A DNA stretch of 64,000 nt, from assembly GCA_017536895.1 (NCBI GenBank), contig JAFWCN010000001.1, forward strand, positions 13,943-77,942, given 5' to 3'. The first letter of the stretch is position 1. Each line of letters begins with the position of its first letter. The notes under the pieces were generated by a model, which was not told the origin of the DNA, did not search any database, and was given only the letters and a program-made list of their open reading frames with translations. This document shows positions 20,319 through 30,937 of the stretch, in pieces. This DNA comes from Candidatus Saccharimonadota bacterium (GTDB taxonomy: Bacteria; Patescibacteriota; Saccharimonadia; Saccharimonadales; Saccharimonadaceae). A program made the translations under genes and the position numbers.

Positions 20319-20395
20319 GGGGATTTAGCTCAGCTGGCTAGAGCGTACGATTCACATTCGTAAGGTCACAGGTTCAAGCCCTGTAATCCCCACCA
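20319..20395 (+). tRNA. tRNA-Val (CAC)
   Basis: GGGGATT acceptor, anticodon arm TACGA-TTCACAT-TCGTA, GGTTCAAGCC, encoded CCA. Confidence 0.95.
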
Positions 20396-20476
20396 GAATA
20401 GGAACTGAGAAAAATCTAAAGCCTGCTTTAGATTCTTTAAAGCAGCGCCCCTGATCTGTTTAACCATGGAGTAGAT

Positions 20477-21475
20477 ATGAAAAAATTACCAGTAGAAGAT
20501 GAATTCAACAATTTTGTTAAATGGATAACAGATAATTCCAATATCTCATTTTGGGATATATTACATCTTGAAAAGTTAGACCCAAACCACTTAAAACTAG
20601 TTTTTCATAAAGACGAGTGGGGCATATTTAAGCCAGATCAAATAGAGCCTGAGCTTCGCAAAGGCTTTTGGGGAAGAGAACAGTCGTTTGACGGTGTTTT
20701 ATTTGATATGTATCGCAACGGTGAGAATAAAAAAATTGAAACAATGACAGAGCTCAGAGGTAAAAGAGCGCGCCTAGCTAAGGACGACTATGCCTTTAAT
20801 TTTATTCCTTATCCTCACGGCAAGAAAACTTATTTATTAGTTTCAGCCTTTCGTGTAACCGACGCTAAGAATCGCATCGTTAAAAAAGAAGATTTATTAG
20901 AATACAGGCCGTTTCTTGGTAGACTTGTCATCAGTTTATATGATGGGCTAGTTAGACCACTGACCTTAAAAGACGCTAACCTTATCAAGAAACTTACCGT
21001 GTCAGAGCTACTTAGCATCCCGGCAAACAAGGCTTTCCCCGGTTACGATAAAGTTAAACTTCTCTACAAAGATTTAGAGGAGAAACTCAAAACTCCAGAG
21101 TGGGCCGAAAAACTTAAGGCCAAAAAAGGAATCTATGTAATCGCTGACCAGAAAACCGGTAAGCTCTACGTAGGTTCGGCTTCAGGTGAAGAAGGCATTT
21201 ATGGACGCTGGAGTGACTATGTTAATACCAAAGGTAATTTCAAAACGTTATTAAACGACGAGAAAGAAATAATCTATCCCAATAAAGGCTTCCAAAAACT
21301 GATTAAGACAACTGGCAGCAAAGAGCATATCGAGCAGTTTTTCCAGTTTTCACTCTTAGAAACTTTCGACCCCGACATGATGGACTCTGAGGAGCTAAAG
21401 AAATACATACTTAGAAGGGAAGGATGGTGGAAGGAAGTTTTATTGACCAAGGAATTCGGATACAACGGTAATTAA
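20477..21475 (+). CDS. GIY-YIG nuclease family protein
   Basis: KGIYVIADQKTGKLYVGSA..GRWSDY, later REGWWK..GYNGN. Confidence 0.85.
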   Translation: MKKLPVEDEFNNFVKWITDNSNISFWDILHLEKLDPNHLKLVFHKDEWGIFKPDQIEPELRKGFWGREQSFDGVLFDMYRNGENKKIETMTELRGKRARLAKDDYAFNFIPYPHGKKTYLLVSAFRVTDAKNRIVKKEDLLEYRPFLGRLVISLYDGLVRPLTLKDANLIKKLTVSELLSIPANKAFPGYDKVKLLYKDLEEKLKTPEWAEKLKAKKGIYVIADQKTGKLYVGSASGEEGIYGRWSDYVNTKGNFKTLLNDEKEIIYPNKGFQKLIKTTGSKEHIEQFFQFSLLETFDPDMMDSEELKKYILRREGWWKEVLLTKEFGYNGN

Positions 21476-21487
21476 AAAAAGATAAAA

Positions 21488-21904
21488 ATGAACATCTATC
21501 TAGACATCGACGGAGTATTAAGAGGAGTAGCCTCGCCAGTTGAAGACGTGGCAGAACTGCTCAACTATATTATTATTAATTATCCAGATACTACCTACTG
21601 GCTTACTACTCATTGCCGGCAAGGCTACAACCACACTAAGAACGCATTGCTAGATTCCGAACTTCCCAGAGAACTCGTCGAAAAAGCCAGCGAAGTTATT
21701 AAACCCACCGATTTCGGCGTCCTCAAAACTGAGGGAATTGACTTCACAAAACCCTTCATTTGGCTAGATGACAACCTCTTTGAAAGTGAACAAAAAGTGC
21801 TAGAAGAACATAATTGTCTCTCAAGCCACTACCTCATGAATCCTCGCGACCCCGAAATGGCTAAAAAAGCCTTGGCCTCACTTAAAACCCTCAAAGAAGT
21901 ATAA
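21488..21904 (+). CDS. HAD-superfamily phosphatase (Swiss-army-knife RNA repair-like)
   Basis: IYLDIDGVL, WLTTH, FIWLDD. Confidence 0.75.
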   Translation: MNIYLDIDGVLRGVASPVEDVAELLNYIIINYPDTTYWLTTHCRQGYNHTKNALLDSELPRELVEKASEVIKPTDFGVLKTEGIDFTKPFIWLDDNLFESEQKVLEEHNCLSSHYLMNPRDPEMAKKALASLKTLKEV

Positions 21905-21964
21905 TTACTCCCACTTGCATTTCTTCCTCCCACAGAGTATACTTAACCAAACAAGAGGAGGAAT

Positions 21965-22726
21965 ATGCTAACACCATCAGAAATTGCTGCAAAAACCATT
22001 GAAACCGGAAAAATCAAAGCCAACTTGCCTTGGTGGAAGATGATTTTGCTTGGCATCTTTGCTGGTATGTTTATCGCCTCCGCCGGTGTCGGCGCCACAT
22101 TTGGCAATGTCTACGGTGGCAAAATCGCTGGCGCCTGTATCTTTACTGCTGGCCTCGCTATGGTGGTAGTGGCCGGCAGCGAGCTCTTCACTGGCAATAA
22201 TCTCATGGTTATGGCCCTTTTTAATCGCAAAATCAAACTTCACCAACTTCTCAAAAATTGGCTTTTTGTATTCTTGGGCAACTTCATCGGAGCATTATTT
22301 GTCGCTGTAGTAGCAGTGATAAGCGGCGCTTTTGATCGAATTCCCGACACCATAGTCGCCACCGCAAACGCCAAGGTGAATCTCGGTTTTTTCGAGGCAC
22401 TTCTAAAAGGTATCATGTGTAATTTCCTCGTGTGTATTGCAGTCTGGATGGCTACCGCCGCCAGCACCGTTACTGGCAAAATCGCCGCCGTATTCCTACC
22501 TATCATGCTCTTCGTCCTCTGTGGTTTCGAGCACTCCATCGCTAACATGTTCTACATTCCAGCCGGCATGATCACCGGCGCAATCAACGGTATCTTCGCC
22601 CCCACCATCACCGAATTCCTCTTAAATAACCTCCTACCCGTCACCATCGGCAACATCATCGGCGGCGCTATTATTGTCGCCGGCGGCTACTATCTTGCCT
22701 ACCATCCGCCAAAATCAAAAGCATAA
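21965..22726 (+). CDS. focA: Formate/nitrite transporter (FNT family)
   Basis: GSELFTGN, VFLGNFIGA, KGIMCNFLVC, GFEHSIANM, GNIIGG. Confidence 0.9.
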   Translation: MLTPSEIAAKTIETGKIKANLPWWKMILLGIFAGMFIASAGVGATFGNVYGGKIAGACIFTAGLAMVVVAGSELFTGNNLMVMALFNRKIKLHQLLKNWLFVFLGNFIGALFVAVVAVISGAFDRIPDTIVATANAKVNLGFFEALLKGIMCNFLVCIAVWMATAASTVTGKIAAVFLPIMLFVLCGFEHSIANMFYIPAGMITGAINGIFAPTITEFLLNNLLPVTIGNIIGGAIIVAGGYYLAYHPPKSKA

Positions 22727-22796
22727 CGCTTACTTATTGAAAAAAAGTACCGAAAATAGTAAAATAAAAATAAGCATAATTAAAAGAGGTTTTATA

Positions 22797-24989
22797 ATGG
22801 ATCCAAATAAAATATCAAAACCAGATTTTCAAGCCGCCGAACAAAAGATTCAAGAGGATCACAAGAAGGAAGTCGAAAGGCGCTTATCTCGTATGGCATG
22901 GCGTTCATTTGAGACCGATAGCTATCGTAGCAATGATTATCGTAATGAACCAATCCCGGACAATGTATTATTTGATTTTGATGAAATATTTGATAATCTA
23001 GATGAACTTGAGGACACTGATGATTTAGCTAATCAAACATCTGAACGCTTGAAAACTGCAGAAAATGCCATGCGTGATTTGATACATGAAAATTTCGTGA
23101 CTAGTGCTAGGGAATACGGTAGACTAATGAAAGCTGAATCAGATAATGAAATAATTCTCAAAAATGCCATCCTGAATGCGAAAATATTAACCGGAAACAA
23201 AACAGCGAATCGCAGCAAAAAAGCACCACTGCCAGATATAATTAGAGGTAATTTACGGAAAATTGAAGCACAAAAAGAAAAACTTGCTTATGAATCCCCC
23301 GAAAGTTATACCGTAGTTAAAGGCATGGAATTCAGGAACCATATTAAAGAAGTTCAAAACAATGAGATGGTCACCACGGCATACGTAAAAAGCAAATATG
23401 AAGAATTACGAGAAAACATGGAAAAAGGCGAACCTTCATTTATCCATGGACATCTTGGCAGTGGTAAAACAGAACTTGCCATTATGACGGCAAAGCACAC
23501 AGCTATCTCTAATGCAGCCATCAAAAACGCAAGGGAAGAATTAAAAAAACATATTGATAACCATCCAGGATTGTCTGGAAAGGAATGTCGCGACGCGTTA
23601 GGTAGGTTTTATCGACTGAATAAAACAAAACTTGAAAAAGCATTTCATGATGGCGACAAAAAAACAATCGAAAGTTATGGTCCACTAATTATCTCTGGCT
23701 CCAAAGACATCGAAACCCAAGACTTATTTGCGGATAAAACATTAAAACTGACCAAGTTTAACGGCAAAGAGCTTCTCGAACATAAGGAAGACTTAGATTC
23801 CGAGATTAAAAAATGGATGGACGAGCATCAGGGCGAACTTGATGAATTAAATGATAAAGAAAGAAACCTTAGAATTAGTGAAGAATCTCACAAAATAGTT
23901 GAATTATACAAATTAAAGAATCAAGCCTTTGGTACCGAAGTTGAAATAGTAGAAAATGCAATTTATAAGGGGATTAAGCAGGGTCGTCCAGTCATCATAG
24001 ATGAAGTAAACACAATCCCAGCAGGAATATTATTATCGCTTAACGATGTGCTGCAACGTCATCCAGGTGACCAGTGTTATATTCCAGGTGTTGGGCCAAC
24101 CGAAATAAAAGAAGGCTTCTCTGTTACCATGACCGGCAACTTGCCTTATGGTAATGTGAATTATAGAGATCGCGAAGAATTGGATCCAGCATGGGTCGAC
24201 CGTTTAAGAAGCAAAATAGAATATGATTATTTGCCAATGTCCAAAAGTGGCAAGCGCCTAGAGCAGACCAATATGGAGGGCAATGAATTATTCCAGGCAA
24301 TCATTGCATATTTGGCAGACCGGCAGGGCAATTTGGAACTTCCAGAAATGGAAAAATCATTAGATAAAATATTTGCGCTATGTCAAGTAGCACATGTCTC
24401 ACAATTAGTTTTTAAAGGTGACTGGGATGAAAGCAAAACATCTTCTGGTGATACCGTAGAAACTAACCTCGAAGCCTCAGTTTTGTCCATGCGTGGGATA
24501 TTAAGAGTATTAAAAGAATGGAATAAGGGCAGCGATAAGAATTTAGATCAAGCCTTATGGGATGGCCATATTGGACAAACAATTATACCAGAAGACCGCA
24601 AAACTCTACTCATGATTGCACGAAACTATGGCTTCTTCTCTGATAAAGATGGTTGGAAAATCAACTTTGACGACGAATCTATTAATAGCAGTATTTCTCT
24701 GAATAGAATCCATCCAGGAGCTTTTTATCATGAACCAAAGCCGCTAGAAGTATATAGCTTACGAGAAGTTGTCGATGCTGTTTATGGCAAACGCCCTGAA
24801 AGGGAAATCTACCCAGACGATATCGACTTTGAAGAAATCGAAGATTTAGCAGACGACAGCATTGACATGGAGGATCTTATCGAAGCAGAAGAAAGAATCA
24901 AAGAGACATCCAAAACCATCAAAGCTCTTGAAGTACTAGCGGAACAATGTGGTTGTAACAACACCGATAGTTCTGATGAGGCAGAATAA
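22797..24989 (+). CDS. MoxR/AAA_5-like AAA+ ATPase with large helical insertions
   Basis: Walker A GHLGSGKTE, Walker B VIIDEVN, SLNDVL, sensor MTGN, LDPAWVDR. Confidence 0.85.
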   Translation: MDPNKISKPDFQAAEQKIQEDHKKEVERRLSRMAWRSFETDSYRSNDYRNEPIPDNVLFDFDEIFDNLDELEDTDDLANQTSERLKTAENAMRDLIHENFVTSAREYGRLMKAESDNEIILKNAILNAKILTGNKTANRSKKAPLPDIIRGNLRKIEAQKEKLAYESPESYTVVKGMEFRNHIKEVQNNEMVTTAYVKSKYEELRENMEKGEPSFIHGHLGSGKTELAIMTAKHTAISNAAIKNAREELKKHIDNHPGLSGKECRDALGRFYRLNKTKLEKAFHDGDKKTIESYGPLIISGSKDIETQDLFADKTLKLTKFNGKELLEHKEDLDSEIKKWMDEHQGELDELNDKERNLRISEESHKIVELYKLKNQAFGTEVEIVENAIYKGIKQGRPVIIDEVNTIPAGILLSLNDVLQRHPGDQCYIPGVGPTEIKEGFSVTMTGNLPYGNVNYRDREELDPAWVDRLRSKIEYDYLPMSKSGKRLEQTNMEGNELFQAIIAYLADRQGNLELPEMEKSLDKIFALCQVAHVSQLVFKGDWDESKTSSGDTVETNLEASVLSMRGILRVLKEWNKGSDKNLDQALWDGHIGQTIIPEDRKTLLMIARNYGFFSDKDGWKINFDDESINSSISLNRIHPGAFYHEPKPLEVYSLREVVDAVYGKRPEREIYPDDIDFEEIEDLADDSIDMEDLIEAEERIKETSKTIKALEVLAEQCGCNNTDSSDEAE

Positions 24990-26317
24990 TGAATTGTAAT
25001 GAACTCCACAAAGACATCGCCGAGCTAAAAGCTTCTTGCGCCACTTTGCAAGAGGGCTACAACCGCATGAACAATGAACTATCCGGCAAAGCTGATTTCA
25101 GAAACAACTATCATAAAACAGAACAACTAAGTGATAAAACCCTGGAAAAATACCTCTCAGATTTTACTGAAAAAAACCCCGAATTGTTCTCATGGAAGTT
25201 AGATAAAAAATTAGAGTATTTCAAAGGTCTTTTTGGCAAACAGATTGAAGGAGCAACCATAACTAAAAGAACGTCAAATGGCAACATAATAGTATTGTCA
25301 GATAGCCCATATCCGGGAGATAACTGTATGTTTTATGAATACAGCTTGGACGACTTCGATAACTTAGTTCTCAAAAGAAGTTCTTTCGAAATAAAAGATA
25401 AGCGAGTTTTAGTTCAGACAGTTTTTACGCCATTGCCAGATGGGGCGGTTCTCGTTGGTGGAGCAAATATACTATACGAGATTAAAGAAGATGACAGAAG
25501 TAAAACGCATTTATCTGATTATAAATCAGAAATATTTGTGGATAAGCCAAGAGCAATCAGCGCCGTTGCTCCTTTACCAAACGGAGGTATACTAATCGGA
25601 GGAGAAGACGGCGAAATATGTGAAGGCAGAAAGAATCCACACACTAAAAGGTGGGAAATAGTTAAATCTCTTGAAAGAGAAGAATATTCTCCTCCAGTTA
25701 CATGTATTACTGAAATGCCTGACGGAGCAATGCTAGTGGCTTGTGAGAAATACATCTACGAGTGTAGAGAAAATGACGAAGGGGATTGGGAACTAGGTGA
25801 AGGAATAAATGGTTTCGTGACCCATGATGGATATGAAGACGAAGTTAAAAGCATATTCCAACTGTCTGACGAAAAGATGCTGATTATTGGGTGTAAAGAC
25901 GCTATATATGAATACAACAAGAATTCAGAAGGAGACTGGGAAATCGGAGAAAAAAGAATAGGCCCACCAAACATAAATCCATATTTCGTCACCCAATTAC
26001 CAAATAATGAAGTTATAATACTGGGTGAAGGGCAGACATTTGTATACAAAAAAAATCGTAACGGATGGACTTTAATTGAGGATGAAACAATAAGCGACGC
26101 TTTCGAAAAAGAATGTGACGAATGGCCAGATTATATTATACCGCTTGAGAGTAACAAAATTGTTGTAGGGGGGGTGAAATGGAAGGAAATTGAAGATGGA
26201 TATCCAGAATCAGAGGATACGGTAATGCTATTTAGCCAGCCAGAACAAACAGTAGAAGGGTTAAAACAACACCTAGACATCATTATTGAAAAAGGAGATT
26301 CTAATGAATTGCAATGA
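24989..26317 (+). CDS. Variable beta-propeller-like protein 1
   Basis: Conserved N-terminal MNCNEL..NPELF.W module; about 7 LPxGx(L/I)(L/I)xG repeats; C-terminal LKQHLDIIIEKG. Confidence 0.75.
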   Translation: MNCNELHKDIAELKASCATLQEGYNRMNNELSGKADFRNNYHKTEQLSDKTLEKYLSDFTEKNPELFSWKLDKKLEYFKGLFGKQIEGATITKRTSNGNIIVLSDSPYPGDNCMFYEYSLDDFDNLVLKRSSFEIKDKRVLVQTVFTPLPDGAVLVGGANILYEIKEDDRSKTHLSDYKSEIFVDKPRAISAVAPLPNGGILIGGEDGEICEGRKNPHTKRWEIVKSLEREEYSPPVTCITEMPDGAMLVACEKYIYECRENDEGDWELGEGINGFVTHDGYEDEVKSIFQLSDEKMLIIGCKDAIYEYNKNSEGDWEIGEKRIGPPNINPYFVTQLPNNEVIILGEGQTFVYKKNRNGWTLIEDETISDAFEKECDEWPDYIIPLESNKIVVGGVKWKEIEDGYPESEDTVMLFSQPEQTVEGLKQHLDIIIEKGDSNELQ

Positions 26318-27479
26318 ACTCCGCAAAAGTATCGACGAGCTAAAATCTTCTTGCGCCACTTTACAAGAGAGCTACAACCGCATGAACAATGAACTATCCG
26401 GCAAAGCTGATTTCAGAAACAACTATCATAAAACGGCACAACTAAGCGACAAAATCTTAGAAAGATACATTCCCAACTTCATAGAAAAGAACCCTGAACT
26501 ATTTGATTGGCAACTAGGGAAAAAGATAGAAGGTTTTAAGGATATGAGCAACGAGGATATCCGACGAGTTACATCTGCAGAATGTCTATCTGATGGGAAT
26601 TTGCTTGTCACAGGTTTCCCCAAAGGAAGTAGGCGACCATATCTTTACATATGCCAATTTGATGAGGCTAACAATATTGAAACAATAGATGAAATTAGTA
26701 TAGCCGGCATTAAAGGCTATAGAACCGCTAGCTATGCCACATTGACAAGCACACAATTGACGGAAGATACGGTATTAATTGGCGGCGGAGACGGATTATT
26801 ATGCGAATGCATAAAAGACGAAACTGGAGATTGGCAGTTAGGTGAAAAAATTGATGGCATCAGTGACAACCATGACATAATGGCTATTGGGGCGGTTTCT
26901 GATAAAAAAGTTTTAGTCAGCACTAATCTCGGCTTTGTCTATGAGTATCTCAAAGATGAAGCTGGAAGATGGGTAAAAAAGAGTTTAATAGCGTCTTACC
27001 TTGAAGGAGTTATAAAAACAATTACTAGATTACCGGATAACAATATACTACTATGTGGCCTTAACGCTCTATATGAATACAAAAAAAATCAGGAAGGGGA
27101 GTGGACTATTATCGACCAACGTGCCAGCTCCTCAGATACAGCTCGAGACGAAATAGATTTTACATATTCAGTTGAATTATCCGACGACAAGATACTGCTA
27201 GGGGAAAGATTTGGCCCTCTCTATGAATTTAGTAAAGACTCAGACGATAAATGGTCATTAAACGAAATTGACGATAAGCCCATCTGCGGTGAATATAAAG
27301 AAATATATGGTTCTACTCCTGAATATATACTAAAACTCTCCGACGATAAACTTTTGGCTGTGGGGGAAAATAATAATCATGAACGCGTTTTGCATGAACT
27401 TATAAAACCATCACTAATCCCACTAGAGACCTTAAAACAAAGCTTAAATAGAATCATTGAAAAAGGAGAAACCCAATGA
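26304..27479 (+). CDS. Variable beta-propeller-like protein 2
   Basis: Same N- and C-terminal modules, about 6 repeats; ATG 26304 after AAAGGAG. Confidence 0.75.
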   Translation: MNCNELRKSIDELKSSCATLQESYNRMNNELSGKADFRNNYHKTAQLSDKILERYIPNFIEKNPELFDWQLGKKIEGFKDMSNEDIRRVTSAECLSDGNLLVTGFPKGSRRPYLYICQFDEANNIETIDEISIAGIKGYRTASYATLTSTQLTEDTVLIGGGDGLLCECIKDETGDWQLGEKIDGISDNHDIMAIGAVSDKKVLVSTNLGFVYEYLKDEAGRWVKKSLIASYLEGVIKTITRLPDNNILLCGLNALYEYKKNQEGEWTIIDQRASSSDTARDEIDFTYSVELSDDKILLGERFGPLYEFSKDSDDKWSLNEIDDKPICGEYKEIYGSTPEYILKLSDDKLLAVGENNNHERVLHELIKPSLIPLETLKQSLNRIIEKGETQ

Positions 27480-28795
27480 TCTGTGATGAACTCCGTAAAG
27501 ATATAGCAGCAATCAAGTCCTCTCGTTCTGCCATGCAGGAAAGGTATGATCACATGAATAAAACCGGCACCAGCGGCAAGGCGGATTTTGTAGAGTCCAG
27601 AATTACAGCCGAAAAGTTAGTTGATGAGATTCTCGAAAAATACCTCCCCGACTTCGCCGAAAAAAACCCCGAGCTTTTCAACTGGTATCCTAATCAGGAG
27701 ATTAAGCTTAATGAAAGGGCTGTTTTTTCCATCAATAATAACGGCAACGAAAGAATAATTGTCGGACAGCCAGGCTGTCTAGTTGAGATATCTACCACCA
27801 AGAATGGACAATATAAAGTGAATACATTTAATGCGCATGAAGAATGGACGTACACCCCTCTTTTAGATGTGCTAACAGTTTTTTCTAAGGATAAAATACT
27901 ATTGGGTGATGGTCTTCATAAAGAAATAAATATCTGCGAAAAAGACTCAATGGGAAAATGGAACTTAACCGCAACAATCGAAAAACTAAACAATGAAGAA
28001 GGGGATAAATGTAGCCCAAACGTAGCTATTGGACTTCCAAACAAAAGAATCCTCATTGGGGGTGATAACGGAATGTTAAATATTTGTGGTCGCGACATGC
28101 TCGGCAGATGGAAAATACTCGAGAAAATACCAGGGTTAAAAGACAAGGATGGGGAATTAAGCAGCGTAAACGCTTTTCATGTTCTTTCAGACAATAATAT
28201 ATTAATCGGTGGAAGCCGAATCCTCTATAGACTTTCAAGAAATACTACTACCGATAAATGGGTGTTGTCTGACGAAAGCGAGAAAGTATTTAACGACGAC
28301 GATAGTCATTATGTTAGAGACATCAAGACGATGCCAAATGGGAATCTATTAATCTGTACCGATGAAGCTATCTACGAAGAAAAGTATACTAATGAAGATG
28401 AATTTGAACGAATAAGTGCCTATAAAGAAGGAAGACATTGGGGGATAATAGGAGATAATAGATACGAAAATTTCCGGAAAGTATTACCGGTCGCTGATAA
28501 CAACATCATTGTCTTGTTGAAAAATGGCGCTCGCGACACAACATCTCTGTACAGTTTCAAAAAAGATGATAATGGGCGATGGTCTATTACTCAAGAACTA
28601 GGCTATTTTGACAAAGAAACAGACGAAGACGGTAATACTATAGCCGATAACAGAATAGAGGACATTATAGCATCACCGAACGGGGGTTTTATCATAGCAA
28701 AAAGAGGCTCATTGGTCGAATATATGCACCGTGCAGATTCAGTTGAAGAATTAAAGAATAATCTAGATAAAATAATAGAAAAAGGAGAAGCCTAA
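27476..28795 (+). CDS. Variable beta-propeller-like protein 3
   Basis: MICDEL..NPELFNW N-terminus, about 7 repeats, LKNNLDKIIEKG C-terminus. Confidence 0.75.
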   Translation: MICDELRKDIAAIKSSRSAMQERYDHMNKTGTSGKADFVESRITAEKLVDEILEKYLPDFAEKNPELFNWYPNQEIKLNERAVFSINNNGNERIIVGQPGCLVEISTTKNGQYKVNTFNAHEEWTYTPLLDVLTVFSKDKILLGDGLHKEINICEKDSMGKWNLTATIEKLNNEEGDKCSPNVAIGLPNKRILIGGDNGMLNICGRDMLGRWKILEKIPGLKDKDGELSSVNAFHVLSDNNILIGGSRILYRLSRNTTTDKWVLSDESEKVFNDDDSHYVRDIKTMPNGNLLICTDEAIYEEKYTNEDEFERISAYKEGRHWGIIGDNRYENFRKVLPVADNNIIVLLKNGARDTTSLYSFKKDDNGRWSITQELGYFDKETDEDGNTIADNRIEDIIASPNGGFIIAKRGSLVEYMHRADSVEELKNNLDKIIEKGEA

Positions 28796-30904
28796 GTGGA
28801 GAATATCAACAATGTACCTACAATTGGCGAGAATGAAGATTCCTCCAAAAAAAATATTAAGGAAAAAATTGGTTCCACGGCTTTATCAGAAAAAACCAAA
28901 AACGAGTCAAACTCCAACATAGTAGAGAACTCAGAGCAATCTGGCAAACGAAAAGCCGAAAGGTTTATCAATCAACATCGCCGAGAGTTTAGTATTTTCG
29001 CTAGGGACCCTTCACTAAATTACATAACATCGCCGAACGCCGAGACATTCATGTTTGATGCGGGCAGTATCCAGGTAATTTTCCCAGAGCAATGGTTTAA
29101 AGAAGATGATTATTCAGAAGAAGAAAAGCTGTTCTCATCATATCACGAACTGTCACATTTCACAGATATGCGAGAAAACCCAGAAGTATTTTTAGATAAC
29201 TTCGCTCAAATGGGAAGAGACGCAGATTCATTAGCTAAAGAATGGCTAAAAAAACATCCAAATAGAGCACCTCAAGCGGCAGTTGCCAGTGTTTATCGCA
29301 AAGAACTGCACGACCTATATAATTGCCTTGATGATATCTATGTTAATAATATTGTTTATGATCGCAGTCCACGTTTTGCGAAAGGTAGCGACGATTACGA
29401 AGACGTCATCTCTCTTTATAAAAAACTTGGCTTCGAAGAAGCCGACTTAACCAATATCCCGCTACATCTCCAGATGTCATATTCTTTACTACGAGATGAA
29501 ATGTTAGGAGATGTTTGCGGCAAAAGCATTGTAGATGACAAAGTCAATGATGCGTTGTCTAAGGTTGTTTTAGGTCAAACCATACCCGAAGCAGTAGACT
29601 CTAGATTAAAGCCCATACCAGGAACCTCTTTAGTAGACCCGAAAGAAAGATACGATTTTATCCGTCATTTTATCCAACCTCAGTTTATAGAATTATTAGA
29701 GGAGGCATTAGAAGAAGCATTGGATGAAGAGCCAGATCGATCACAACAAAACCAACAAACCAAACAACAGGGTCAAGGAGAAGAAACAGAATTTGATCCA
29801 TTTGGAGATTTCAGAAATAACTCACGCTTCCGTGATTTCTTAGACAACGACGAAGAAAACATCGAGAAATCACTCCACGAATGGAAAGAACAAAAAGATA
29901 TTGAAAACATGTCTGACGAAGAGCGCAGAAAATATGAAGAAGAAAAAAGAACTAAAGAGTTTGATGATAAACATGGCATCACTGAAGAAGAGCGCAAAGA
30001 AAACACTCGCCTTCAAAACGAAATCAAAGAAGCGCGCAACGAAATGCGTAAGTTTTGGAGAAATCTCGTTGGTAAATCTGTAGAATATCGCAAAAATAAG
30101 GTAAAATACCAACGCAAAGGTCGCTTCAATGTCTCTAGTTATATTGACAGGTATGCCGAAACGGAAGAACGAAAAGCTCAAGGTAATCTTCGCACAGCAG
30201 AAGTTTATGATCGCAATGAAATGAAACGAACGATAGTAGATCAGCCAGAAACAATTGATATCTCCCTATTAGTGGACTGCTCAGTCTCTATGTGGGGTGA
30301 AAAGGAAGAAATGGCTAAACAAACCGCAGCTCTACTTATGTATTCAATCAAAGACTTCAATCATGAGCTAGATCGTGAGCGCTACAAAACCGGCTCTAAA
30401 CTTCGTGCCAACACACAAGTTATTGCCTTTTCATCTGACGATAGAGAGATTAAAGGTTTTGAACGGAAAAATGGTCGAAATGCTGGCGCAAATGACACAG
30501 AGATTATTAAAACATTTTCTAAACTAGATAAGTTTAAAAGAGGTGGAACAAACGACGAGGCTCCATTACAAAAAATACAATCTAGTTTGTCTGCTGACGA
30601 TTTACAAAGGATTAAAGACAAAAAACTCAAAAAGATTATTTTTGAAATCACAGATGGAGCTTCACAATACGAAACTGGCGCCAGCAGAGTAATCAAACAA
30701 CTTGCTGGTGAAGGTGTTTTGACGGTTGGTTTTCAAATTGGTAATGTTGATGAACATGAGCGTGAGTTATTTGAAAGAATCTGGAATAATGACGAAGCAA
30801 AACAAAATGGCGCTAAAGGAATATATATTGGCAATAATCTTTCAGACTTGCCTACAAAACTAATGGAAGAGTTATCTGACTCCTTGAATGACATCATTAT
30901 CTAA
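28796..30904 (+). CDS. vWA (MIDAS) domain protein with N-terminal HExxH metallopeptidase-like motif
   Basis: YHELSH, NCLDDIYVN, acidic Q/E linker, LLVDCSVSM, GGTND, ITDG. Confidence 0.8.
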   Translation: MENINNVPTIGENEDSSKKNIKEKIGSTALSEKTKNESNSNIVENSEQSGKRKAERFINQHRREFSIFARDPSLNYITSPNAETFMFDAGSIQVIFPEQWFKEDDYSEEEKLFSSYHELSHFTDMRENPEVFLDNFAQMGRDADSLAKEWLKKHPNRAPQAAVASVYRKELHDLYNCLDDIYVNNIVYDRSPRFAKGSDDYEDVISLYKKLGFEEADLTNIPLHLQMSYSLLRDEMLGDVCGKSIVDDKVNDALSKVVLGQTIPEAVDSRLKPIPGTSLVDPKERYDFIRHFIQPQFIELLEEALEEALDEEPDRSQQNQQTKQQGQGEETEFDPFGDFRNNSRFRDFLDNDEENIEKSLHEWKEQKDIENMSDEERRKYEEEKRTKEFDDKHGITEEERKENTRLQNEIKEARNEMRKFWRNLVGKSVEYRKNKVKYQRKGRFNVSSYIDRYAETEERKAQGNLRTAEVYDRNEMKRTIVDQPETIDISLLVDCSVSMWGEKEEMAKQTAALLMYSIKDFNHELDRERYKTGSKLRANTQVIAFSSDDREIKGFERKNGRNAGANDTEIIKTFSKLDKFKRGGTNDEAPLQKIQSSLSADDLQRIKDKKLKKIIFEITDGASQYETGASRVIKQLAGEGVLTVGFQIGNVDEHERELFERIWNNDEAKQNGAKGIYIGNNLSDLPTKLMEELSDSLNDIII

Positions 30905-30937
30905 GACACTTTAGCGAAATATGGTACAATATGGCTA

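Follow-up and report, generated by a model that had tools for sequence, protein, structure and literature searches.

Ternary systems that join a MoxR-like ATPase and a vWA protein with a third component containing a beta-propeller were described by Kaur, Burroughs, Iyer and Aravind (2020; PMC7159879) for hosts among the Bacteroidetes, Planctomycetes, Verrucomicrobia and Proteobacteria. In these systems the vWA protein carries a C-terminally fused propeller of about four blades, the P-loop has the form GxxxTAKS, and the third component has a propeller besides TPR and a membrane segment (PMC7159879). In the Esr epibiont-sensing pathway of oral Actinobacteria, reported in a 2026 preprint, MoxR and vWA proteins act with a beta-propeller sensor of divergent sequence. 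EsrA is secreted, bears Ig-like repeats and is anchored at the surface; signalling runs via Ser/Thr kinase, phosphatase and FHA protein, and a transglutaminase is also part of the pathway (PMC13622651). The two-component pairs NorQ-NorD, CbbQ-CbbO and RavA-ViaA combine an ATPase ring with a MIDAS-bearing vWA adaptor and are linked to client enzymes, while the aerobic cobaltochelatase CobNST possesses a third, substrate-holding subunit, CobN. Rea1/Midasin, a giant protein of eukaryotes whose single polypeptide contains six AAA modules plus a MIDAS domain, functions in ribosome biogenesis and removes the WD40 proteins Ytm1 and Rsa4 via their N-terminal domains.

The window, i.e. the whole 64,000-nt stretch of DNA that was analysed, belongs to a small parasitic member of the Saccharibacteria. 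Five translationally coupled genes on its plus strand (22797-30904) constitute one operon for an ATPase, three paralogous propellers (B, C and D) and a vWA/MIDAS protein (Table 1). Overlaps of 1, 14 and 4 nt or abutting ends (TAATG, ATGA, TAA-GTG) characterize the junctions, in agreement with the co-directional arrangement recognized in the sequence-only reading. The ATPase start codon ATG at 22797 is preceded by a Shine-Dalgarno-like AAGAGG, and no terminator-like site was detected on the plus strand at any of the operon's gene junctions, the sole plus strand match (29822-29835) being located within the vWA gene. The operon's products, with a maximum KD19 of 1.27, showed neither signal peptides nor hydrophobic segments, and the impression of an A-rich region was correct as well, with an A fraction of 0.375 for the operon and 0.310 for the window, and a GC fraction of 0.382 vs 0.441 in each flank. 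The operon is part of an accessory island adjoining tRNA-Val (GC 0.391 vs 0.441 in the flanks), on which a formate/nitrite transporter with many hydrophobic segments is also encoded; this gene is syntenic in the related locus L010 (86% identity). Two genomes of the same genus (G224 and G246) show the order prmC-prfA-(tRNA)-sufC-sufB-nrdD with a prfA-sufC gap of <300 nt, which represents the empty site, so that the island is an insertion when compared with these genomes; in G224 the same tRNA is located directly 5′ of sufC.

Table 1. Positions of the operon, its motifs and the surrounding island in the window.
Feature	Position	Strand	Remarks
tRNA-Val(CAC)	20319..20395	+	ARAGORN; island starts directly 3′
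Accessory island, 10.5 kb	20396..30937	.	between tRNA-Val and sufC; missing from same-genus genomes
GIY-YIG-domain protein	20477..21475	+	332 aa; island left end; Pfam GIY-YIG E 8e-4; relative of phage family phrog_26160 (E 1.1e-26)
Formate/nitrite transporter (FNT)	21965..22726	+	on island, directly 5′ of operon; PF01226 on L010 orthologue
Best sigma-70-like promoter match	22737..22765	+	TTGAAA-17-TAAAAT, 10/12; consensus match only; 5′ of ATPase gene
AAA_5 (MoxR/CobS-like) ATPase gene	22797..24989	+	730 aa
ATPase Walker A GHLGSGKTE	23448-23474	+	invariant in family
ATPase Walker B IIDEVN	23988-24011	+	invariant in family
Propeller paralogue B	24989..26317	+	442 aa; N-terminal helical hairpin, 7 blades, C-terminal helix; AF2, Foldseek, PDB profile search
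64-nt stretch in B	25056..25119	+	identical to 26371-26434 in paralogue C; within constant 5′ module
Propeller paralogue C	26304..27479	+	391 aa; alignments; weak WD40_like match
Propeller paralogue D	27476..28795	+	439 aa; vWA-proximal copy, orthologous in close relatives
CobT-like vWA protein gene	28796..30904	+	702 aa; N-terminal HExxH domain, helical linker, vWA domain with MIDAS
HELSH of vWA protein	29144-29158	+	invariant in Patescibacteria/Dehalobacterium clade
MIDAS of vWA domain (DCSVS; T and D also present)	30269-30295	+	invariant in family

The assignment of the first gene product to the MoxR/AAA_5-like ATPases was upheld by its family: the window protein scores 17.4 bits for AAA_5, below the cut-off of 22, and 25/25 aligned homologues match this domain (best E 6.9e-15). 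Together with the Walker motifs, the sensor-1 TGN and the Arg finger are invariant in the family, and these motifs show the predicted AAA_5 ATPase to be catalytically intact. Between Walker A and B a large insert of ~110 extra residues is present. The vWA protein matches PF00092 (28.6 bits, cut-off 23.8) and carries, as had been read from the sequence, HELSH and an intact MIDAS with all motif residues present. Its N-domain additionally contains NCLDDIYVNN at residues 176-185; HExxH, N176, D180, N184 and the MIDAS residues are invariant among 42 representatives with 20-36% identity, and the signature HExxH...NxxDDxYVN is invariant in the Patescibacteria/Dehalobacterium clade. The AF2 topology of three strands, the HExxH helix and further helices makes the N-domain zincin-like in the predicted model; a significant sequence match for a zincin fold was found neither in Pfam nor in the PDB, and structural matches to phage 'metallopeptidase' proteins are weak (E 1.4e-4). 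It is doubtful that this domain generally acts as the effector, since the vWA proteins of the whole Firmicute/Atopobiaceae clade have YELAL and lack DDIYVNN at the aligned positions.

As judged from sequence and model comparisons, the ATPase-vWA pair most resembles CobS/CobT-like pairs, including those of phages: the ATPase matches the CobS-like phrog_249 (E 2.8e-12), and phage CobT-like proteins align to the vWA model along its whole length (E 2e-10), next to weak CobT_C and CobT matches, while no NCBIfam or Pfam match to the CobS and CobT families reaches threshold. The three-part organization is reminiscent of CobNST. However, the third subunit is here a propeller instead of CobN, the N-domain bears HExxH, and the ATPase has, besides its insert, long N- and C-terminal extensions. 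Saccharibacteria are not known to synthesize cobalamin, which also differs from the CobNST context.

The proposal of three paralogues with a common N-terminal module and C-terminal helix around divergent bodies was confirmed, with 54-81% identity of B, C and D in the first ~68 residues and just 24-29% in the bodies, and with the helix LKxxLxxIIEKG common to all three. The repeats do fold as propellers according to three lines of evidence. The AF2 model of gene B (pLDDT 84.3, pTM 0.81) comprises a helical hairpin (3-54), 28 strands forming 7 blades and a helix (429-440); Foldseek matches it to 7-bladed propellers (E about 1e-9); and the family profile hits designed and PQQ-like propellers in the PDB (E 1e-22 to 1e-10). 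In paralogue C, which is shorter by ~50 residues, one blade is probably missing. B and C share a perfect tract of 64 nt in spite of 29% protein identity of their bodies, which suggests gene conversion.

The full-length ATPase was detected in 3/401 sampled Saccharimonadia genomes (~1%) and in 0/36 genomes of the same genus. The three-gene family is widespread, with members in Saccharibacteria, other Patescibacteria, Dehalobacterium, many Clostridia/Tissierellia, Vagococcus, Erysipelothrix and Atopobiaceae, and across phyla the ATPase, propeller and vWA genes occur together in most loci with sufficient contig. The pair without a clear propeller was seen in four Patescibacterial loci; L082, L085 and L089 have no propeller nearby. 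An NCBIfam search found nothing, and the family is unannotated and uncharacterised, matching no characterised operon, metabolic ones included, and no known defence system. Variation between relatives, which the sequence-only reading had made a touchstone, is pronounced: 1, 2, 3, at least 4, 5 or 7 propellers were counted per Saccharibacterial locus, the gene neighbours vary between these loci, and arrays of 2-7 propellers are common. Three copies are therefore unexceptional, contrary to the view that a multi-receptor version would be unusual in CPR genomes. Paralogue D shares 65-67% identity with the last propeller of L010 and L011, while the best values for B and C are <=50%; the vWA-proximal propeller is thus orthologous between relatives and the remaining copies turn over. 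In both clades the propeller is the fastest-evolving component (mean identities of ATPase/vWA/propeller 46/43/33% and 70/66/51%), although such divergence is equally expected of a merely less constrained subunit.

The best reading of these data is that the operon encodes a cytoplasmic AAA+ machine with three components. Our tentative first choice (probability about 0.45) is that this machine has an accessory role and uses ATP to remodel or proteolyse targets, with the propellers serving as exchangeable specificity subunits that dock via their constant termini. The ATPase ring and the vWA protein would form the constant core, by analogy with MoxR/CobS-type pairs, onto which the constant helices would dock. 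The Esr pathway offers a precedent for a MoxR-vWA pair that acts together with a divergent propeller sensor (PMC13622651). The occurrence of one to seven propellers in relatives suggests interchangeable target-binding parts, the variable faces of which would bind differing targets; a bound target would be remodelled or extracted by ATP hydrolysis and, in the HExxH clade, may be cleaved by the zincin-like domain. The scattered occurrence, the location on an island and the turnover of paralogues speak for an accessory and against a housekeeping role, most likely at a fast-changing interface, e.g. with mobile elements, phage or host-derived proteins. The conflict or sensing role that had been proposed is plausible but unproven: the searches gave no direct evidence for conflict, PADLOC models yielded no significant match (best E 0.016), and phage and plasmid searches found no copy of the system.

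A threat-sensing module in the strict Kaur or Esr sense, in which an invader-derived ligand would be sensed by the propeller and the signal passed on by the MoxR-vWA pair to an effector encoded elsewhere, would be in line with paralogue diversification, the island context and the experimental precedent of MoxR-vWA proteins with divergent propeller sensors (PMC13622651). The Esr pathway also shares the conserved MoxR and vWA proteins with a divergent propeller and the arena of Saccharibacteria-host conflict, and the Kaur systems share the ATPase, the vWA protein, a variable third component, propeller repeats and the absence of a conventional toxin effector. Yet this explanation is very improbable, as kinase, FHA, caspase, TIR, nuclease and all other recognised output domains are missing from the locus, the propellers are cytoplasmic without signal peptide, and the defining features of both systems are absent. 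Membership in the Kaur systems was rejected, since the propellers are here stand-alone, 7-bladed and soluble, the P-loop reads GHLGSGKT, HExxH occurs in an N-terminal domain of the vWA protein and the system is found in Patescibacteria and Firmicutes; in contrast to Esr, phosphatase and transglutaminase are likewise missing, and the system is cytoplasmic and resides in the epibiont rather than the host. Midasin-like logic, with propellers as substrates and not receptors, is improbable too. In this case the MIDAS would grip a conserved acidic residue of the constant terminal module and the AAA_5 ring would strip the propeller from, or load it onto, some assembly. A sequence search of the PDB with the ATPase profile indeed gave a Midasin AAA domain as its best match (E 6.6e-5), the top structural matches of the vWA model include the Rea1 MIDAS domain, both alone and in complex with Ytm1 or the Rsa4 UBL, the Rea1 clients are likewise propellers with a conserved N-terminal handle, and the constant termini are acidic and conserved. 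However, no acidic residue of the N-module is invariant across the whole family, the module is a helical hairpin instead of a UBL domain, and the likeness is one of domains, generic to AAA_5 and vWA domains (TM scores 0.2-0.55).

More serious as a rival to exchangeable specificity subunits, though still unlikely, is a chaperone of the NorQ-NorD, CbbQ-CbbO or CobS-CobT type that matures or repairs specific clients, without any conflict; its ATPase-vWA pair would activate, or insert a cofactor into, one or few enzymes, with the propeller as client scaffold or adaptor and additional propellers for additional clients. All experimentally characterised MoxR-vWA pairs known to us are chaperones, the CobS- and CobT-like matches fit, and the formate/nitrite transporter adjoins the operon in the window as well as in L010. 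Those chaperone pairs, on the other hand, have neither a propeller subunit nor a HExxH domain and belong to different AAA_5/AAA_3 subfamilies; an invariant HExxH has no role in known MoxR chaperones, neither arrays of up to 7 divergent paralogues nor an occurrence in ~1% of related species is usual for a metabolic chaperone, the Saccharibacterial loci have differing neighbours, and no MCRA above threshold was found in the window's genome. MCRA is the candidate client in the Firmicute/Atopobiaceae clade, where the cassette is always located 3′ of this gene (597 aa, oleate hydratase family, PF06100, E 5e-202), which lies on the same strand 60-370 nt upstream (mostly about 100-140 nt) in 57 loci. 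These loci encode one propeller, comparatively conserved with ~80% identity between genera; by hhalign it is a homologue of the propellers of Saccharibacteria (probability 99.1%, E 1e-18). The single conserved propeller and the strict oleate-hydratase linkage point to a dedicated client chaperone, at least there, rather than to a variable-receptor system. In one locus of this clade, a TetR gene is located 5′ of MCRA.

The five genes encoding the AAA+ ATPase, the three beta-propeller paralogues (B, C and D) and the vWA protein were recovered by ORF calling where the sequence-only reading had placed them, all on the + strand. As had been read by eye, the junctions are tight, with overlaps of 1, 14 and 4 nt and otherwise abutting genes. 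An AAGAGG ribosome-binding site directly precedes ATG 22797. No terminator-like sites were found on the + strand at the gene junctions, the sole + strand match (29822-29835) lying within the vWA gene. All five operon proteins are acidic and lack hydrophobic segments and signal-peptide-like N-termini, in agreement with the earlier statement that signal peptides are missing. The impression of A-richness was confirmed by counting (37.5% A in the operon vs 31.0% in the window), and the GC content of the operon is 0.382 vs 0.441 on both flanks.

Features of the operon and of the surrounding island, with positions in the window
Feature	Position	Strand	Remark
tRNA-Val(CAC)	20319-20395		island starts directly 3' of the tRNA
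Island content	to 30937		GIY-YIG protein, 138-aa ORF, formate/nitrite transporter, five-gene operon
Best promoter-like match of the region	22737-22765	+	TTGAAA-17-TAAAAT, just 5' of ATG 22797
ATPase gene	22797-24989	+	730 aa
Propeller B gene	24989-26317	+	442 aa
Propeller C gene	26304-27479	+	391 aa
Propeller D gene	27476-28795	+	439 aa
vWA gene	28796-30904	+	702 aa

The operon is carried by an accessory island of low GC content next to a tRNA gene. Two same-genus genomes have the order prmC-prfA-tRNA-sufC-sufB-nrdD, and their prfA-sufC gap is <300 nt; accessory status was assigned because this order lacks the 10.5 kb that separate tRNA-Val(CAC) from sufC in the window. The GIY-YIG protein at the island start has relatives in a phage family (phrog_26160, E 1e-26); neither an integrase nor flanking direct repeats were found at the island (20319-30937). 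Within the genome, which is 836 kb in size and 99% complete, the propeller family occurs at the operon locus only. A full-length ATPase of the family was found in 3 of the 401 sampled genomes of the class (Saccharimonadia) and in none of 36 same-genus genomes, figures that refer to the sampled genomes, so that absence means not found in those searched, and in which kin among the compared genomes and loci are not independent. The weaker ATPase matches in the sampled genomes are other AAA_5 proteins, matched in the core region alone. In one same-genus sufC homologue (L095; G096:C3:1900-2568) a single in-frame TAA lies inside the match.

Genes for ribonucleotide reductase recur as neighbours: nrdDG is located 2 kb downstream in the window, nrdD is found at most a few kb from the module in three loci of relatives (L019, L023 and L098), and nrdAB is found directly upstream of the ATPase-vWA pair in two others (L085 and L089). 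For the window a functional link to this enzyme was rejected; sufCB-nrdD is an ancestral neighbourhood that predates the insertion of the island, and the closeness of the operon to sufCB-nrdDG is therefore accidental. This rejection covers the window; in the other lineages the neighbourhood is kept as an observation.

The designation of the first gene product as a MoxR/AAA_5-like ATPase was upheld for AAA_5 and not for MoxR proper. The window protein scores 17.4 bits with the AAA_5 profile (PF07728), under the 22-bit cut-off, and the profile is matched by all 25 aligned homologues (best E 6.9e-15). Walker A (GHLGSGKTE), Walker B (IIDEVN), sensor-1 (TGN) and the arginine finger R469 are invariant in the 25 homologues, leaving the catalytic motifs intact; the profile of MoxR proper (AAA_3, PF07726) matched neither the window ATPase nor any of these homologues. 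Walker A and Walker B are separated by ~180 residues, ~110 above ordinary AAA_5 domains, and N- and C-terminal extensions of ~200 residues each are present. The family profile has the AAA domain of Midasin as its best match in the PDB (E 6.6e-5), and the window ATPase matches the CobS-like phrog_249 (E 2.8e-12). No match was obtained when phage and plasmid collections were searched with the ATPase by tblastn.

The vWA protein scores 28.6 bits with PF00092, over the cut-off of 23.8, and its family profile matches the vWA domain of TRAP (E 4.8e-10). The MIDAS residues D494, S496, S498, T585 and D620 are in place and show little or no variation in the family. In a single-chain AF2 model (pLDDT 80.5), an N-domain spanning residues ~45-320 consists of a long helix, three short strands, the HELSH helix and more helices, and is followed by a helical linker and the vWA domain. 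HELSH (residues 117-121) is located on helix 108-127, which follows strands 75-79, 86-88 and 93-97; two alignments, of 19 and of 42 clade members, show no variation in it. Both the HELSH motif and the intact MIDAS noticed earlier are conserved in clade 1, the HExxH-bearing branch of the family. In 42 clade 1 representatives that are 20-36% identical, H117, E118, H121, N176, D180, N184, Y208 and Q226 are invariant; the likewise invariant D124 and D180 are candidate third metal ligands.

The predicted topology of the N-domain is zincin-like, making it a putative metallopeptidase domain. Pfam scans of 25 and of 42 family members returned no peptidase family and no DUF2201_N on the N-domain, and the HExxH-domain profile had no match among PDB sequences, even at E 10. 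A Foldseek search of the PDB with the whole model gave vWA domains exclusively (TRAP, C2a and Rea1-MIDAS, E ~1e-5), all aligned to the vWA half. Against viral models, the best matches were full-length ones to phage CobT-like/VWFA proteins (E 2e-10), and two phage 'metallopeptidase' proteins matched weakly (E 1.4e-4).

Constant termini around divergent bodies, as proposed for the three propellers, were borne out by the paralogue comparison: the first ~68 residues of B, C and D are 54-81% identical and the C-terminal LKxxLxxIIEKG helix is common to them, while the bodies are 24-29% identical. The fold suggested for the repeats was likewise supported. An AlphaFold2 model of B, predicted as a single chain from 26 homologues (pLDDT 84.3, pTM 0.81), begins with a helical hairpin (3-54), continues with seven blades made up of 28 strands and closes with a helix (429-440). 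Foldseek returned 847 PDB matches at E <= 0.001, the top ones all being propellers, with seven-bladed matches to Nup43, Seh1, ARPC1, Vgb lyase and G-beta (E ~1e-9), and the family profile matched designed (Cake, Bagel) and PQQ-like propellers in the PDB (E 1e-22 to 6e-10). Propeller C, which is ~50 residues shorter, probably has one blade fewer. Within the constant 5' module, 64 nt of B and C match perfectly (25056-25119 = 26371-26434); because this identity exists despite bodies that are 29% identical, it points to gene conversion as the process keeping the N-terminal handle of B and C uniform. The propeller adjoining the vWA gene is orthologous in the window, in L010, the closest relative, and in L011 (65-67% identity), with identities of 76% for the ATPase and 79-80% for the vWA protein in the same comparison; the upstream copies reach at most 36-50% and differ in number. 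In L011 one of three paralogues (L011:187-1493) is broken up into two ORFs, one of 117 aa for the N-module and one of 310 aa for the body, and is probably a pseudogene.

Word-based searches yielded 194 relatives of the ATPase and 55 of the vWA protein. The few named vWA relatives belong to Saccharibacteria, and the few named ATPase relatives to Saccharibacteria, Dehalobacterium, Tissierellaceae, Eubacteriales and other Patescibacteria. A profile search with the HExxH domain gave 516 clusters (50% identity) in 1.84 billion proteins; these appear to share the architecture of the window protein, because most members among the 150 listed are 650-850 aa long. For the analysis of gene neighbourhoods, the ATPase profile was applied to one genome per species, and the ORFs called in the resulting 80 loci were scanned with component-specific HMMs. 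Where the contig is long enough for a judgement, most loci have the full set of three, and the ATPase, vWA protein and propeller are co-inherited across phyla. Between the Firmicute ATPase and vWA genes a gene of ~411 aa matches the Saccharibacterial propellers (hhalign probability 99.1%, E 1e-18), and its product is, as judged from this profile match, a true propeller homologue, N-terminal helices included. The view of a narrow propeller family, derived from 13 word-based homologues, was dropped after the locus-based HMM searches.

Several loci depart from this arrangement. Four from Patescibacteria (L082, L085, L089 and L091) carry the ATPase-vWA pair with no clear propeller. In two of them (L085:1381-11091 and L089:1224-10551) the order is reversed to vWA-ATPase, no propeller is nearby and the pair is located directly between nrdA-nrdB, the genes of class I ribonucleotide reductase, and a GAPDH gene. 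In L091, paralogues of 349 and 356 aa that are 47% identical (L091:2425-3471 and L091:7385-8452) lie on either side of the vWA gene; their initial helix resembles the propeller N-module (xxCQQLRxEL..., hhalign probability 42% and 10%), the body differs and is non-propeller, and they may be third subunits of a different kind that share the handle. Two long ORFs, of 1116 aa in L069 (L069:6616-9966) and of 1043 aa in L073 (L073:5424-8555), are apparent in-frame ATPase-propeller fusions, and the middle ORFs of L079, L080, L081, L083 and L090 comprise only ~215 aa matching the N-terminal part of the propeller family.

The family divides into two clades. Clade 1 comprises Saccharibacteria, other Patescibacteria and Dehalobacterium, and all its members have HExxHFxDM and (N)xLDDIYVN. 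The HExxH-less clade 2 comprises Clostridium, Tissierella, Peptostreptococcus, Anaerocolumna, Lacrimispora, Vagococcus, Erysipelothrix, Atopobiaceae and others. The catalytic motif is thus not kept family-wide: where clade 1 has HELSHFTDM and LDDIYVNN, the Firmicute and Atopobiaceae orthologues read YYELALYPDW and LLDKQTSFLRV, without DDIYVNN. Mean pairwise identities of ATPase, vWA protein and best propeller are 46, 43 and 33% in clade 1 and 70, 66 and 51% in clade 2, the propeller being the fastest-evolving component in both.

Number and placement of the propeller genes differ between Saccharibacterial loci. One propeller is present in L007, L008 and L022, two in L010 (at the same island position as in the window), L019, L020, L023 and genome G406, three in the window and L011 (with its split copy), four or more in L018 and genome G103, five in L021 and seven in L099, where six tandem genes on the opposite strand and one downstream encode propellers with a mutual identity of 38-52%. 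A multi-receptor version had been expected to be unusual in a CPR genome; with counts varying from 1 to 7 per Saccharibacterial locus, three copies are unexceptional. Propeller arrays are not always contiguous with the ATPase-vWA core. In G103, three of four propellers lie away from the ATPase-vWA locus, two of them in tandem on another contig (C7:40118-42654, C1:112424-113683).

Clade 2 has exactly one propeller per locus. In 57 of its loci (L026-L090), a 597-aa gene for MCRA, an oleate-hydratase family protein (PF06100), is located on the same strand 60-370 nt upstream (mostly ~100-140 nt) and is 70-92% identical across genera (e.g. L033:6687-8477 and L054:6659-8452). This four-gene cassette must have spread horizontally, because it is so alike across genera, with ~80% identity even for the propeller.

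Comparison with described systems left the module without a match. [quoted passage not shown] 2020, the vWA protein has a C-terminal ~4-bladed propeller, the P-loop reads GxxxTAKS and the third component combines a TM segment, TPR and a propeller (PMC7159879). In contrast, the window vWA protein ends in its vWA domain, the P-loop is GHLGSGKT and the propellers are soluble and stand-alone; with none of its defining features applying, this class was ruled out. The epibiont-sensing pathway Esr consists of secreted EsrA with Ig-like repeats and a cluster of Ser/Thr kinase, phosphatase, FHA and transglutaminase genes. The 2026 preprint on this pathway gives experimental evidence, from the Actinobacteria that host Saccharibacteria, for a MoxR-vWA pair working together with a propeller sensor of divergent sequence (PMC13622651). 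The Esr cluster was also ruled out, since secreted EsrA, kinase, phosphatase, FHA and transglutaminase are absent from the five genes and the island. Nearest by sequence and fold are CobS/CobT-like pairs, above all those of phages. No operon protein had a significant NCBIfam match, the curated CobS/CobT models included; CobT_C was matched weakly by 4 of 25 members (E 0.04), a PDB search gave a weak CobT match (E 0.24), and PDB sequence searches with single operon proteins gave nothing useful. No description of the module or of an oleate-hydratase/AAA/vWA operon was found in the literature. We class it as a machine of the AAA_5-vWA kind in which the third subunit and an N-terminal domain are new. 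Its AAA_5 ATPase is intact, the partner of the ATPase retains its MIDAS and bears an HExxH signature that is invariant within one clade, and the soluble seven-bladed propellers, with their constant helical ends, are multiplied and subject to turnover in Saccharibacteria.

Among the unexplained two-gene modules of bacteria and phages, AAA_5/MoxR-vWA pairs rank with the commonest, and the question is how they choose their targets. The family offers a natural experiment: its ATPase-vWA core is constant, and the third subunit, which can be separated from the core, ranges from one copy in Firmicutes to seven in some Saccharibacteria with genomes of 0.6-1.1 Mb. The preferred reading, to which we assign a probability of about 45%, is a machine with a constant core and exchangeable propellers that remodels and possibly cleaves its targets. 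By analogy with every MoxR/CobS-type pair studied, the core would consist of the ATPase ring and the vWA protein, and the propellers would dock on it via their constant helices; the variable propeller faces would present targets, making the propellers exchangeable specificity subunits, and ATP hydrolysis would remodel or extract the target, with cleavage by the zincin-like domain as a further possibility in clade 1. Should the propellers indeed confer specificity, the module is a compact model of how an AAA_5-vWA machine is re-targeted, and a rare accessory system that genome-reduced epibionts keep and diversify at a cost. The combination of constant handles and variable faces makes the propellers swappable and the reading directly testable.

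The strongest rival is a client-specific chaperone of the NorQD/CbbQO/CobST kind, a possibility that we regard as real if rather doubtful: it is favoured by clade 2, with its MCRA linkage, lost HExxH and single conserved propeller, whereas in the Saccharibacterial branch it is opposed by the paralogue arrays and by the absence of MCRA from the window's genome. The biological role of the exchangeable-propeller machine is less certain. Its rarity and location on an island, together with the paralogue arrays and gene conversion, resemble what is seen in a conflict system, as the sequence-only reading had proposed, or in a host-interface system; against a conflict role stand the lack of any significant component match to the defence models of PADLOC-DB 2.0 (best E 0.016-0.032, to unrelated models), of a phage or plasmid copy and of a recognised output domain. 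In a more far-reaching form, which we consider unlikely, the machine would, in Saccharibacteria and in other bacteria that acquired the cassette, perform cytoplasmic surveillance or proteolysis by receptor exchange, with up to seven propellers presenting different foreign or host-derived proteins to the AAA_5-vWA core for cleavage by the zincin-like domain. The common helical docking handle would then be kept uniform by gene conversion, and the logic would parallel that of eukaryotic F-box/WD40 or DCAF substrate receptors; if true, prokaryotes would have an immune or host-interaction machine of a new class, and ultra-small epibiotic bacteria their first such system. That the propellers are instead substrates, pulled by their handles in a Midasin-like manner, seems improbable, and a role in signalling only, as in the Kaur or Esr systems, was judged less likely still.

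The strict oleate-hydratase linkage in Clostridia, Tissierellia, Vagococcus, Erysipelothrix and Atopobiaceae provides a concrete candidate client. Clostridium sporogenes is among the carriers of the cassette, and in L092 a TetR gene is located ahead of the four genes.
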